A stretch of DNA of 21,742 nucleotides, taken from NCBI GenBank assembly GCA_016839585.1, contig JAEOTZ010000032.1:1-21742 (forward strand), written 5' to 3'. Every line of letters begins with the position of its first letter. The first letter of the stretch is position 1. The translations under genes and the position numbers were made by a program. The notes below the pieces were generated by a model. The model made no database searches and was not told the origin of the DNA. It worked only from the letters and a program-made list of their open reading frames with translations. This document shows, in pieces, positions 1 through 6,110 of this stretch. Origin of the DNA: Promethearchaeota archaeon (GTDB lineage: Archaea; Asgardarchaeota; Lokiarchaeia; Sigyniarchaeales; SOKP01).

Positions 1-573
<573 letters not shown>

Positions 574-612: not shown

Positions 613-717
613 GTTTTTCTGAGGAAAATATAATTGTTCTTAATAAATTTTCGTACTTTAAAAATCTCTTTTAAAATAGAAGTATATCATTTTAAAAAAT
701 TGTACTTGGAATTTAAA

Positions 718-1719
718 ATGCACCTAAAAGAAAAAATAGGAATCCATTTAGACCAAATTAAACAATTAAAAGGAGTTGAAAATGCAGTATTGACTCAGAG
801 GGATGGTAATCCAATTCAATCTACTGGAGTTTGGTTCTCTAAAGATGAAATTTTTAATGTCAGTTCTGCAACCAGTGCAATTTTTAATGTTGGAATACAT
901 CTACATCCAAATGATTTAAAATATATTTTAATTGAAGGTAAAAAAGCGAAAATTTTAATCGCACCATTAAATAGTCCTTTGCACCATTCTTTAAATAGAA
1001 TTTTAGAACAGCAAGGTATTTTAGATGACAATCATGAATTTTTTATAGCAATTACAGCTCAACCTAACGTTAATTTAGGGGGTATATTTTTACAAACGAG
1101 TGAATGTTTGAAAAAAATTAAGACAACTTTAATAACTTCCGGAGAATCATTCAAACCACCCTTAATTCAGTTTACAAATCAGAAAATTCAAAATATAATC
1201 GAAGGATTCAATGTTAAAGAAAATGAAGAATTTAATTTGAGAGTATCATCATTTTCTTTAAGTTTTTCAGAAAATATATCAATTGAACTAAGAAAAATTT
1301 TAAATAATTTTTCATTAACAATTCCAGATTTAAAATATGCCTTTATTACGATTGAAGGTGGTTTTATTGCTTCTAAAATATTAAAAAAATTTGATGTTAA
1401 TAAAGAAAAGTTAGATAACATTTCAGCAATGAGTTATTCGCTCTTTCAAACAGCTAACAGATGTGCATGGTTATTAAAAAAAATGCAAGCCGAGAATATT
1501 TTGCTTGATTGTGAAAATACTTTTCAGTTTATTAATGGATTAGGAAAAGCAATATTTAGTACTGAAATTGGAAAAGTACGCCAAAAATTGGGGCTTATAA
1601 GGTTAATACTTCCACAATTCTCAAAAAAGATTAATACACTTATTAAGCAAGCATCTGAAATTCAAGATCACAGAACTTTTGATATTAAAAGATTATTGGG
1701 AGAATTAATAATTAAATAA
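718..1719 (+). CDS. Tandem (double) Roadblock/LC7 (MglB/LAMTOR-like) domain protein
   Basis: Two Roadblock patterns: 'LDQIKQLKGVENAVLTQRDGNPIQS..VSSATSAIF..YILIEGKKAKILIAPL..FIAITAQPNVNLGGI' and 'IPDLKYAFITIEGGFIAS..ISAMSYSL..ILLDCEN..KLGLIRL'. ATG at 718 preferred over the TTG at 634. Confidence 0.85.
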   Translation: MHLKEKIGIHLDQIKQLKGVENAVLTQRDGNPIQSTGVWFSKDEIFNVSSATSAIFNVGIHLHPNDLKYILIEGKKAKILIAPLNSPLHHSLNRILEQQGILDDNHEFFIAITAQPNVNLGGIFLQTSECLKKIKTTLITSGESFKPPLIQFTNQKIQNIIEGFNVKENEEFNLRVSSFSLSFSENISIELRKILNNFSLTIPDLKYAFITIEGGFIASKILKKFDVNKEKLDNISAMSYSLFQTANRCAWLLKKMQAENILLDCENTFQFINGLGKAIFSTEIGKVRQKLGLIRLILPQFSKKINTLIKQASEIQDHRTFDIKRLLGELIIK

Positions 1720-1732
1720 TGTAGGTGGAAGC

Positions 1733-2629
1733 ATGAATTTTTTTGAATTTTTAGATAAACTTAAAAAAAATGATAATTCCTTAATTTTATATTGCCTTCT
1801 CGATAGAATTCCAATCATAGTGTTAGGAGAAGATTCAGAGCAAGTTGATCAATTTCTAATCGATTTATCTGAACTTATTCATTTTAGAAAAGAATATGTG
1901 TTTTATACAGACTTTATTTCAAACAATGAATACAATAATTTAGTTTTAAACGAAAATATCGATTTTAATTCTCAAAGAAGTCATATTAGATGTCCTTGCA
2001 ATGTAGCTAGAAAAGCACTAAGTCAAATTGAAGATATTAATTCTTGGCTTATTGGAATGGAACTTCCTGACCAAAAAGATCATTTTAATTATTTAAAAAA
2101 CTTAATTATAAAAAAAGCGATTAAGGTCTTATTTATAATGATCTCAGCTAATAATATTTCAATTGAAGTAGAAGGAATTGATCTCAAATTAATTGATTTA
2201 ACACTAGAACAAAAAATTTTCAGAAAAATTTCTCAAGATACAGAAAAATCTATTGCTAAAATGAAGAGAGTCTTATCCGAAAAAATTCAAGTGAATCATC
2301 TTGATAAAGATCTAATGAAGACTTTATTAGATTTTGAAGTAGAGAAAAACGAATTGAAAAAAAATATTGTTAAAGCTGAAATTCAAAATTTTTATTCAGG
2401 CTCAAAAAGAGCTTTCTTCATATTATCAAGATTATCATTATTAAATAATGTAGAAATTAATACAAATATAGGAAGTAAAACACTTTTAGAAACAATTGAT
2501 TACGAAGAAGCACCTATAAACCGAATAATATCATTTATTGCGAAGGAATGGGAGGCCAATTTTTCTATCTTAATAGAAAATGGTAAAAAAGCATTTATGG
2601 GAGATAAAATAGTTTCACTATGGGGTTGA
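1733..2629 (+). CDS. Conserved hypothetical protein, cDENN-like (SMCR8/folliculin-type) N-terminal region
   Basis: 298-aa ORF with a GGTGG SD-like motif. 'LILYCLLDRIPIIVLGEDSEQVDQFLIDLSELI..SWLIGM' resembles the cDENN core as I recall it from SMCR8/FLCN. Fold assignment is by eye only. Confidence 0.55.
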   Translation: MNFFEFLDKLKKNDNSLILYCLLDRIPIIVLGEDSEQVDQFLIDLSELIHFRKEYVFYTDFISNNEYNNLVLNENIDFNSQRSHIRCPCNVARKALSQIEDINSWLIGMELPDQKDHFNYLKNLIIKKAIKVLFIMISANNISIEVEGIDLKLIDLTLEQKIFRKISQDTEKSIAKMKRVLSEKIQVNHLDKDLMKTLLDFEVEKNELKKNIVKAEIQNFYSGSKRAFFILSRLSLLNNVEINTNIGSKTLLETIDYEEAPINRIISFIAKEWEANFSILIENGKKAFMGDKIVSLWG

Positions 2630-2636
2630 ATCTAAT

Positions 2637-3230
2637 ATGATTTATGATTTTGAAAATAAAACCTTACAGGTTAAAATAGTATATTATGGACCGGCCATGT
2701 CAGGAAAAACAACATCGATTAAACATCTCTTTTCTTATTTTAATAAAGAAGATATGTTAGAGTCTATTGATAATTCTGTAGGGAGGACCTTATTTTTTGA
2801 TTTTGGTGTTTTACAATTCAAGGGGACTGAATGGGGATTGAAATGTTTAATATATTCTGCCACAGGTCAAGATTTTTATGCAAGTACTCGCCCAGCTACT
2901 TTAAATGGAGTAGATGGTATAATATTTGTAGTTGACTCACAATTGGAATATTTAGAACATAATTTATGCTCTTGGAACGAATTAAAAACACTGTTTGGAG
3001 AAGAAATATATAATATCCCTATAGTAATTGCCTTAAATAAATGCGATTTAGATAATATAAAAAAATTAAAGGAACTTGATTTTGTCTCGCATATTAATTA
3101 TGATAGATTCAAAAATCTATCGCTTAAAAAAACAATAGCAATTAAAGGAGAAGGAATAATAGCGTCGTTTTTCCAATTAATTAGATTTATTTTCCCTCAA
3201 CTAAATTTAAAAATCAGTGTTATTAATTGA
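2637..3230 (+). CDS. MglA-family small GTPase
   Basis: KIVYYGPAMSGKTT (G1), GRTLFFDF (G2 with intrinsic Arg), SATGQ (G3), GVDGIIFVVDSQ and NKCD (G4), all MglA signature motifs. Confidence 0.92.
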   Translation: MIYDFENKTLQVKIVYYGPAMSGKTTSIKHLFSYFNKEDMLESIDNSVGRTLFFDFGVLQFKGTEWGLKCLIYSATGQDFYASTRPATLNGVDGIIFVVDSQLEYLEHNLCSWNELKTLFGEEIYNIPIVIALNKCDLDNIKKLKELDFVSHINYDRFKNLSLKKTIAIKGEGIIASFFQLIRFIFPQLNLKISVIN

Positions 3231-3233
3231 TTT

Positions 3234-3431
3234 TTAGTCTTTTTTTTTTTTATTCTTTTGATACATATTTTTAGATATTCTTTTTATGTATCCTTGCATA
3301 TAAAATTGTTTTAATAAATTTCTTACTTTACGTACTTGCGAGGCATCAATTCCCAAAACACTCATTAATTGAAATATTGAAAATTGTATTGGTAAATTAT
3401 CCTTAATATTATTATATAATCCCATTTCCAT
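3234..3431 (-). CDS. Small winged-helix (wHTH) protein
   Basis: 65 aa. 'FSIFQLMSVLGI..VRNLLKQFYMQGYIKRISKNMY' follows an HTH-plus-wing pattern. Confidence 0.6.
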   Translation of the reverse strand: MEMGLYNNIKDNLPIQFSIFQLMSVLGIDASQVRKVRNLLKQFYMQGYIKRISKNMYQKNKKKKD

Positions 3432-3491
3432 TTTATTGTAGTCTTTTTTCAGTTATTATATAAAAATGAATAAATATTTTTATAAATTGTT

Positions 3492-3603
3492 ATTCGATTA
3501 AGGTTTGTATAATCCTCAAAGTAACTATAACTTATCATTCCTACTTATTGTAGATCATCCTTGTCTAGTTTCTATCATCGAATTTTTATAACCTTAATCC
3601 AAT
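3492..3603 (-). ncRNA. Dual-guide box C/D sRNA within a BHB-containing precursor stem
   Basis: Minus strand: outer stem, BHB, box C AUGAUAG (3578-3572), guide, D' AUGA (3558-3555), UCUAC/GUAGG hairpin, C' AUGAUAA (3538-3532), guide, D UUGA (3519-3516). Both K-turn geometries are intact. Guides are complementary to LSU H69 (AGUAACUAUAACU) and to a CCUUGUC segment like the one downstream of H69. Confidence 0.8.
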
Positions 3604-3620
3604 TTTTCTAATTTTTTAAA

Positions 3621-3636
3621 TTTTTAAATTTTTTTC
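3621..3636 (-). promoter_or_regulatory. Putative promoter (BRE + TTTAAAAA) for the C/D RNA precursor
   Basis: Minus strand GAAAAAAA-TTTAAAAA ends ~20-25 nt upstream of the 5' stem arm. The same TTTAAAAA box precedes the tRNA. Confidence 0.45.
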
Positions 3637-3699
3637 AAAAAAGAGTAAAAAAAACCTTATAAAATAATTATCGGTAATTTTCAATCTAGTAAAATCAAT

Positions 3700-4386
3700 T
3701 TAAATATCTTGAAAATCCTTAAAATTATTGCCTATTGGAGCCTCTCCATCTCCATATATTTGATATAATCCTGTTCTTCTAGCACATTCTGAAAAACTAC
3801 GATATATATTTTTCCTTTGGTCATATAATGCACATGATTTATAAATGATGGGATTCCAAATATATAGCTCATGATCAGGTTCATACCAGAGTTTTTCATC
3901 TTTCATTACTTGCTTAAAATCTTCTTCTCCAATCACTTCTTTAAGATCTTGCTTATTTAACATGATTATAAGAGGAATTTCTTTAATTAACTTTCCTCTT
4001 GTTACATTTTTTAGCTCTTTCAATGATTCTATATTATCTTCGAAAAAGTGGGTTTGTGAATCAACAGTAAATATAACTCCATCAGTACCTTTAAATATTT
4101 TTTTTCTTAATGGGGAAAATCTTCTTTGACCTGCCACAGTATACACGTGATAAAATACTTTTCCTCTGCTTTTCTGTTTTGTAGATTGAAAAATCCCTCT
4201 ATCAAAATAAAGTGTGGATCCACTTGCCATAGAAATTTTAGTTAAATGACCCGTTGGTTCAATATCTTTTTCATCTTCTTTTGTTAATCTATAAAGCGTA
4301 TCTACAATTGTTGTCTTTCCTGAGCCAGCCATTCCCCAATAGAGTATCTTTATATATACTTTATGATCTGCTGTAAATCGAACCAT
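3700..4386 (-). CDS. MglA-like small GTPase (second paralogue)
   Basis: KILYWGMAGSGKTT, GSTLYFDRG, VYTVAGQ, FKGTDGVIFTVDSQ, NKQD and SCA motifs. AGGAG SD upstream. Confidence 0.92.
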   Translation of the reverse strand: MVRFTADHKVYIKILYWGMAGSGKTTIVDTLYRLTKEDEKDIEPTGHLTKISMASGSTLYFDRGIFQSTKQKSRGKVFYHVYTVAGQRRFSPLRKKIFKGTDGVIFTVDSQTHFFEDNIESLKELKNVTRGKLIKEIPLIIMLNKQDLKEVIGEEDFKQVMKDEKLWYEPDHELYIWNPIIYKSCALYDQRKNIYRSFSECARRTGLYQIYGDGEAPIGNNFKDFQDI

Positions 4387-5093: not shown

Positions 5094-6110
5094 ATGAAAG
5101 AATTAAAAAATCAATTTATTAATTATGAAGAATGTCCAGAATGTGGGGGAGATATAGTCCTTAATAGCTTTGAACAAATTTGCAATGAGTGTGGGTTGGT
5201 AATTAATAGGTTTTTTAGAGAGTCCTCTTACATTTTTGATAATAATATAAAAAAACTCAATAATTTAAGCAAACAATACGTAGCTTTAGGAGAACGAACA
5301 GATTTTATAGGGGGTTTAGGGTCATTTATAGATTATGAAAATTCTAAATATTTAAAGGATAAATCAGGTAAACTTTTACCTCCAAATGAACAAAAATTAT
5401 ATAGAAGATTAAAAAAAAATTATTCTCAATTTTTAAGGATTAAAAACCATGAAACTGAATATAGAGTTTTTAATATTTTAAACAAAATTTCGCTATATCT
5501 AAATTTTAATAAAAATATTCGTAATAGTGCTGCTTATTATTACAAAAAAATCTTAAAGCAAGAAGAAAAAGTTATTAATAATATTTCTTTAATAGCTTTT
5601 TGTGTTTTTTATGCTGCAAGAAAAGAAAACCAAAACGCTCCAATTACTATTAACGAAATATCGGAAGCTTTTCAAAATTTTGGACATAGAGTCAACCCAA
5701 GATTAATTCTGAGGGATGGTTTAAAATATAAAAAACATTTGAATACCGACTCTGCACCTCATAAGAGCGAAGATTATCTTATTAGGTTAATAGATGAAGT
5801 GATTAATCACAATGATTTAGAGAATAGAATGGTTAAAAAGGGAGTTTTATGGTTTAAGAAAGAATATCAAAGTAATTTAACGATAAAATGTCGCGAAATA
5901 TTGAAACAGTTATCCTATTGGACACGTGGGGGTAGAAATCCATTTATTTTAACTGGGGCGGTAATATATTTAGCAGATAAATTAATAGCTAAAGAAAAGA
6001 AACAGAAATCAATTTTAACACAAAAAATGATATCAGAAGCCACCAAAATTGCTGAATATTCTATTCGAGACCATTATGTAAATTTATTGAAACCTCAATT
6101 TATTAAATGA
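5094..6110 (+). CDS. Transcription factor B (TFB/TFIIB) family protein, divergent
   Basis: N-terminal Zn ribbon CPECGG..CNECGLVI, two cyclin-like repeats, GRNP motif and C-terminal HTH 'TQKMISEATKIAEYSIRDHY'. Confidence 0.88.
   Translation: MKELKNQFINYEECPECGGDIVLNSFEQICNECGLVINRFFRESSYIFDNNIKKLNNLSKQYVALGERTDFIGGLGSFIDYENSKYLKDKSGKLLPPNEQKLYRRLKKNYSQFLRIKNHETEYRVFNILNKISLYLNFNKNIRNSAAYYYKKILKQEEKVINNISLIAFCVFYAARKENQNAPITINEISEAFQNFGHRVNPRLILRDGLKYKKHLNTDSAPHKSEDYLIRLIDEVINHNDLENRMVKKGVLWFKKEYQSNLTIKCREILKQLSYWTRGGRNPFILTGAVIYLADKLIAKEKKQKSILTQKMISEATKIAEYSIRDHYVNLLKPQFIK

Follow-up and report, generated by a model that had tools for sequence, protein, structure and literature searches.

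Does the intergenic gap between two Arf-family GTPase genes of a Loki-type Asgard archaeon contain a guide RNA for the ribosome, and if so, which rRNA nucleotides would it select and how would it relate to the snoRNAs that act at the same sites in eukaryotes? The window, by which we mean the whole stretch of 21,742 nt analysed here (contig JAEOTZ010000032.1 of assembly GCA_016839585.1) and to which all positions refer, carries this locus on its minus strand, ~3.2 kb from the 5' end of the 16S gene. No paper describing Asgard C/D sRNAs was found in a literature search on the subject. We found that the best overall explanation is a real, conserved sRNA gene with two guides targeting helices 69 and 71 (H69 and H71) of the large subunit (LSU) rRNA, a reading to which we give a probability of about 0.8 and in which we infer expression, RNP assembly and methylation.

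The plus strand, read directly, has AGTAACTATAACT at 3520-3532 and CCTTGTCTAGTT at 3559-3570. The initial annotation had read these two segments as the complements of two guides, and this was confirmed, with C/D boxes correctly placed on the minus strand: TCAA at 3516-3519 of the plus strand gives box D (UUGA) and TCAT at 3555-3558 gives box D' (AUGA). Judged by its sequence, the minus strand at 3511-3584 is a box C/D sRNA core of ~74 nt that was previously unannotated, whose elements follow from 5' to 3' the order stem I, C, D' guide, D', hairpin linker, C', D guide, D and stem I. The features, including the outer flanks, are as follows.

3590-3600, minus strand: outer flanking helix, 5' strand GGAUUAAGGUU, complementary to 3495-3505 over 10 bp
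3580-3584, minus strand: terminal stem I, 5' strand AAUUC, pairing with GGAUU at 3511-3515
3572-3578, minus strand: box C, AUGAUAG, a variant of the genus consensus AUGAAAA; core A-U-G-A-N-A (near-)invariant in 46 sequences
3559-3571, minus strand: D' guide AAACUAGACAAGG, 13 nt, N+5 being C at 3563; pairs with same-genus 23S and covaries with H71
3555-3558, minus strand: box D', AUGA; UGA invariant in 46/46 aligned members, first base A or U
3539-3554, minus strand: D'-C' linker hairpin UCUAC-AAUAA-GUAGG(A), 16 nt, paired and covarying
3532-3538, minus strand: box C', AUGAUAA; AUGA core invariant
3520-3531, minus strand: D guide GUUAUAGUUACU, 12 nt, N+5 being U at 3524; 12/12 Watson-Crick with H69, UUAUAGUUAC invariant in all homologs
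3516-3519, minus strand: box D, UUGA; invariant in Loki-type members, CUGA in other Asgard lineages
3511-3515, minus strand: terminal stem I, 3' strand GGAUU, partner of AAUUC
3495-3505, minus strand: outer flanking helix, 3' strand AACCUUAAUCG, partner of 3590-3600

Archaeal box C/D RNAs follow the consensus RUGAUGA for box C and CUGA for box D, which form a k-turn with tandem sheared G.A pairs. The terminal boxes of the window RNA fit this consensus at 5/7 (C, AUGAUAG) and 3/4 positions (D, UUGA), and their GA is invariant among 46 members. Box C has drifted well away from RUGAUGA, being AUGAUAG here and AUGAAAA in most congeners. Another register for this box, UCGAUGA, was rejected: the congeners have G, A, U or C at its G3 but keep A-U-G-A-N-A. 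Both internal boxes, C' and D', were found, shut by a covarying hairpin, and the guide spacers measure 13 nt (C to D') and 12 nt (C' to D), the archaeal C/D expectation being ~12 nt. The drift of box C and the 13-nt D' spacer speak against the reading adopted here. Beyond the usual terminal stem, the outer 10-bp helix (3495-3505/3590-3600) surrounds the entire sRNA, and the flanking stretches of complementarity fold to 3495-3600. In congeners the flanks pair as GGUU/AACC plus a distal GGAGUU/AACUCC helix, and flank pairing is also predicted by RNAalifold; this outer helix could be a processing or stabilising stem.

Regarding the targets, the 23S gene lies outside the window, as the initial annotation had pointed out, and the assembly also lacks the 23S beyond LSU model position 1319, with neither target sequence anywhere in it. 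The sole 23S fragment of this genome (G000:C76) covers LSU model pieces 16-662, 673-930 and 937-1319 and ends at the contig end, and the 16S and 23S genes of the source MAG are both incomplete. A 23S with H69/H71 was also sought in the close relatives G041 and G044, whose sRNA is given as identical, and was absent from both. The sequencing runs that contain the window are all of marine-sediment DNA. Pairing was tested on the same-genus 23S from G001, G042 and G064 instead of the organism's own. These read ...CGGGAGUAACUAUAACUCUCUUAAGGUAGCCAAAUGCCUUGUCUGGUAAGUUCAGACG, with GGGAGUAACUAUAACUCUC as the H69 part and GCCUUGUCUGGUAAG as the H71 part.

Against AGUAACUAUAAC of H69, the D guide forms 12/12 Watson-Crick pairs in same-genus and same-order 23S, or 13 nt counting the last A of box C' with (U). 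Its N+5 falls on the second A of GUAAC in a U:A pair, equivalent to E. coli A1913. The D' guide forms 11 bp with CCUUGUCUGGU, made up of 8 Watson-Crick pairs, a G.U and 2 more Watson-Crick pairs, and its N+5 falls in a C:G pair on the G of CCUUG, equivalent to E. coli G1945 and 32 nt downstream of A1913. The E. coli numbers were taken from that species' row in the alignment of Dennis 2015. Both guides therefore pair with same-genus 23S over at least 9-10 bp and have a Watson-Crick pair at N+5, and the earlier assignments of A1913 to D+5 (3524) and of G1945 to D'+5 (3563) were borne out. The initial annotation had also placed the two targets about 30 nt apart in the 23S: the spacing (32 nt) and the H69 sequence stood, but the H71 target that it expected, CCTTGTCTAG, did not, since the genus reads CCTTGTCTGG, ending in ...CTGG. 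This difference accounts for the G.U in the D' duplex and for its length of no more than 11 bp. A metagenome contig, L115, does carry a 23S with CCTTGTCTAG, but it is only 82-87% identical to the same-genus 23S and could not be tied to the source species. When both guides were scanned over the 6.5 kb LSU and 4.5 kb SSU regions of G064, the top matches were H69 and H71, 32 nt apart. Under the dual-guide model the organism's own 23S would be expected to read CCUUGUCU(A/G)GU plus AGUAACUAUAAC. Of the two sites, the one of the D guide is the more secure.

Whether H71 is truly a target can be judged from distant relatives. Among 185,579 prokaryotic species scanned for RNAs that carry the two guides together, 80 Asgard species records came up, under the labels Promethearchaeota/-eia, Heimdall-, Hod-, Hermod-, Thor-, Jord-, Frey-, Borr- and Atabey-, along with 2 bacterial chance matches. 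The pattern used required the Asgard/euryarchaeal H69 sequence and was blind to crenarchaeal versions; the Asgard-restricted distribution that the scan suggests is ruled out by IHOsR91 of Ignicoccus, a crenarchaeon. In the distant Asgard families the two-guide layout is kept and the D' guide follows the H71 sequence of its own lineage. The Heimdall/Hod-type family has CCUUGUCAGGU in the H71 region of its 23S and AACCUGACAAGG as D' guide (a perfect 11-mer), and the Atabey type pairs CCUUGUCGGAC with GUCCGACAAGU. The H71 region reads CCUUGCCGG both in the Jord/Frey type, where the D' guide is AAACCGGCAAGA, and in the Borr type, where it is UAACUGGCAAGG. This covariation across families is what argues most strongly for H71 as a true target.

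Nevertheless, a second explanation has to be weighed, in which only the D guide works, on A1913, and the D' guide is relaxed or decaying, being idle or serving as a transient folding aid for H71 with no methyl transfer. Within the genus the D' sequences vary and the D guide is invariant: about 10 of the 28 species have 1-3 mismatches in the D' guide, G042 and G064 show three against their own known 23S, and in G044 the mismatch is at N+5 itself. The G.U of the window duplex and its end at 11 bp point in the same direction. Moreover, a sister family with GUCGUAUAAG in H71 keeps the H69 D guide and has an unrelated D' element, the H71 guide being lost entirely. As D' is degraded in congeners and lost in the sister family while D is invariant, H69 represents the constrained function, and the H71 site appears to be ancestral yet dispensable. 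On the other hand, the full 11-bp duplex with its Watson-Crick pair at N+5 is intact in the window and in 18/28 species of the genus, and the guide tracks the changes of H71 over several Asgard lineages and in Ignicoccus, which requires selection on pairing. We consider it unlikely that the D' guide is without methylation function, though with enough of a case to be kept in mind, and retain the dual-guide reading.

How do these sites relate to those of eukaryotes? Two nucleotides downstream of yeast Am2256 (snR63), a residue of the H69 loop, is Psi2258, the counterpart of E. coli 1915 (PMC2794176), and A2256 thus corresponds to A1913. Yeast Gm2288 (snR75) is 32 nt beyond Am2256 (PMC5199042, PMC8817022), a spacing that matches the 32 nt between the targets of the window guides. 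The proposal of the initial annotation that the two sites are those of Am2256 and Gm2288 is hence in agreement with both numbering and spacing. The equivalents of the A site are human 28S Am3739 (U46) and Dictyostelium Am2522, and those of the G site are Dictyostelium Gm2554 (CD14) and Arabidopsis Gm2278 (AtU15), the G site not being listed as methylated in human (PMC8817022). The same source assigns AtU15 a second site as well, the equivalent of yeast Am2281 (snR13).

It could be thought, as the initial annotation did, that the dual guide shared by Ignicoccus and the Asgard archaea is the direct ancestor of the separate snR63/U46 and snR75/AtU15-type snoRNAs, split after eukaryogenesis. Both predicted sites coincide with eukaryotic methylations, and an RNA widespread in Asgard archaea and present in a crenarchaeon could predate eukaryotes in the archaeal ancestor. 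If true, it would be one of very few guide RNAs whose descent can be followed from archaea into eukaryotes. However, the comparison with the Rfam models for snR63/SNORD46 and snR75, put forward by the initial annotation, did not turn out in its favour, as no snoRNA match was obtained at E<=10. H68, H69 and H71 are archaeal methylation hotspots (Dennis et al. 2015, BMC Genomics 16:632, PMC4644070), H69 and H71 being targets of numerous unrelated sRNAs, and the exact positions of 2'-O-methylation tend to be labile and are seldom conserved between archaeal lineages (Lui et al. 2018), which makes independent acquisition plausible. Furthermore, different groups of eukaryotes use different snoRNAs for the G site, which is missing from the human list, and the signal in a guide of ~12 nt is too small for a proof of descent. 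We therefore rate direct ancestry as quite improbable; convergence on a hotspot is a plausible origin of the shared sites, and the RNA by itself shows no special link between Asgard archaea and eukaryotes.

The sRNA itself is supported by its conservation and structure. With a 91-nt query, the locus was recovered from 28 genomes of the genus, at 84-100% identity. Little or nothing changes across their alignment in boxes D', C' and D, in the D guide or in the stem; the variable parts are the loop of the linker, nucleotide 1 of the guide and the flanking sequence. A wider alignment comprises 46 Loki-type members, and pairing statistics were taken from 45 distinct family members. In the linker hairpin 99% of the cells are paired and 4/5 pairs have changes on both sides, and the hairpin would close the C'/D' motif as a true k-turn stem; in stem I, 4/5 pairs are kept among the 45 distinct members. 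Position 6 of box C (A) can pair with position 1 of box D (U), and the two change together, being A-U in Loki-type members and G-C in the Heimdall/Hod type (AUGAUGA/CUGA), a compensatory exchange within the k-turn's non-canonical stem. The motif 'TGA-N3-6-TTATAGTTAC-NN-TGA' occurs in 134/400 genomes of the phylum against 12 for a reversed control pattern, an 11-fold excess. This excess, the conservation in 28 genomes and the paired top rRNA matches 32 nt apart are the reasons why we regard the locus as more than chance. When 3300-3800 was searched by cmscan with all 4227 Rfam families at E<=10, a 12-bit match to sR58, put down to chance, was all that came up, and at gathering thresholds Rfam gave no match at the sRNA locus. 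That the boxes and the rRNA complementarity are fortuitous in AT-rich intergenic DNA, with no functional RNA behind them, is a view to which the 29% GC of the genome, the degenerate box C and the lack of an Rfam match lend themselves, but which we dismiss as hardly credible in the face of the phylum-wide conservation with its 11-fold excess over the reversed pattern, the compensatory changes in two structural elements and the covariation of guide and target.

Two further observations concern copies of the guide motifs. Three other genomic copies of GTAACTATAACTC (on C4, C67 and C89) lie inside open reading frames and were taken as coding coincidences. In another genome of the genus (G063:C77:38581-38688), two H69 D-guide motifs lie 86 nt apart on one strand, in the contexts TGATAAG and TGAGATC, which suggests a tandem duplication of the sRNA gene.

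The proteins that a C/D RNP requires have homologs in the genome, where the fibrillarin (PF01269, 260.7 bits) and Nop5 (PF01798, 209.1 bits) genes are adjacent on C52 and L7Ae-family homologs (PF01248) are found on C50 and C61. By analogy with characterised archaeal sRNPs, L7Ae would bind the terminal C/D k-turn and the hairpin-closed C'/D' k-turn, and Nop5 and fibrillarin would then assemble on the L7Ae-bound k-turns. The D guide would pair over 12-13 nt with the loop and 3' strand of H69, and fibrillarin would place a 2'-O-methyl group on the adenosine that corresponds to A1913 (yeast A2256), which faces the fifth guide position counted upstream from box D, while the D' guide would pair over 11 bp, one of them G.U, with the strand entering H71 and direct methylation to the guanosine equal to G1945 (yeast G2288). 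Both sites are situated in the region of intersubunit bridge B2a, and gripping both segments may also aid the folding of this region.

The genomic surroundings were also considered. The genes at 634-1719 (+), 2637-3230 (+), 3700-4386 (-) and 5094-6110 (+) encode a Roadblock/LC7 protein, two Arf-family small GTPases and a TFIIB-repeat protein, and genes of these kinds are typical Asgard 'eukaryotic signature' genes. The sRNA is directly downstream of the gene for a 228-aa GTPase, on the same strand, and the 5' end of the 16S runs off the window at 1-368 (-). The distance from the sRNA to a contig end is 3.0-3.8 kb in many relatives; in G064 the sRNA is 3.2 kb upstream of a complete 16S, with the 23S ~52 kb away. 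This arrangement indicates that the sRNA is in conserved synteny with an unlinked 16S gene.

The related 23S on L115 (Ga0209427_10057887) contains, at ~1750-3220 (+), an insertion of ~1.5 kb that separates H69 from the AAGGUAGCC segment. The insertion lies close to E. coli 1927/1928, between the two sites that the guides target. It includes a 450-aa ORF with a weak, sub-threshold LAGLIDADG match and is probably an rRNA intron with a homing endonuclease. The Asgard contigs L010, L011, L052, L093 and L094 break in or right beside the H69-H71 stretch. As a side possibility, the two guides may clamp the exons around a 23S intron insertion site, which is seen in at least one related metagenomic 23S.

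A two-site guide present across many Asgard lineages and in a crenarchaeon constitutes an unusually stable piece of the ribosome-modification programme, in particular as both guide sites are methylated in yeast, plants and Dictyostelium whereas exact sites are usually labile among archaea. The two nucleotides offer a concrete pair of positions to check in the first methylation maps of Asgard ribosomes. The RNA can also usefully seed the annotation of C/D sRNAs in AT-rich genomes of the Loki type, in which standard searches fail on the drifted boxes (AUGAAAA/UUGA).

Among known systems, the eukaryotic snoRNAs share the target nucleotides with the window RNA. Yeast snR63 and human U46 (SNORD46) act on the same H69 loop A as its D guide and have no detectable similarity to it (no Rfam match at E<=10). 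In the case of snR75, AtU15 and CD14, the nucleotide shared is that of the D' guide, the G in CCU(U/C)GUC lying 32 nt 3' of the H69 A; they are snoRNAs apart from the H69 guide and likewise have no detectable sequence relationship to the window RNA.

The closest counterpart is archaeal. IHOsR91 of Ignicoccus hospitalis was found by RNA-seq and is catalogued in Additional file 1 of PMC4644070. Its guides stand in the same order as those of the window RNA, the D' guide UAACUCGGCAAGC before box D' and the D guide AUCAGAGUUACG before CUGA, and N+5 selects the same nucleotides, G1945 and A1913. The D' guides of both RNAs even share a U opposite G1949 and a mismatch three positions on. Unlike those of the window RNA, the boxes of IHOsR91 are canonical (AUGAUGA, CUGA); its linker is short and lacks a conserved hairpin, and its guides are GC-rich and fitted to the crenarchaeal H69 (CUCUGAC) and H71 (GCCGGG). 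It belongs to another phylum, and the likeness is confined to the boxes, the guides and the wobble/mismatch pattern of D', with linker and flanks being different. Sac-sR113 of Sulfolobus acidocaldarius (PMC4644070) has a D guide (CUCAGAGUUACU) followed by CUGA for the same H69 adenosine, but its D' guide (CAUAAAAUAGC) is unrelated to H71, so that a single site is shared. Guides for two nearby sites are common in archaea, as ~45% of Pyrobaculum sRNAs target two sites less than 100 nt apart (Lui et al. 2018). In this sense, the dual guide is not Asgard-specific and was already catalogued in Ignicoccus, there without comment on its eukaryotic equivalence; its dual-site design is ordinary, and it is the depth of its conservation that is notable.
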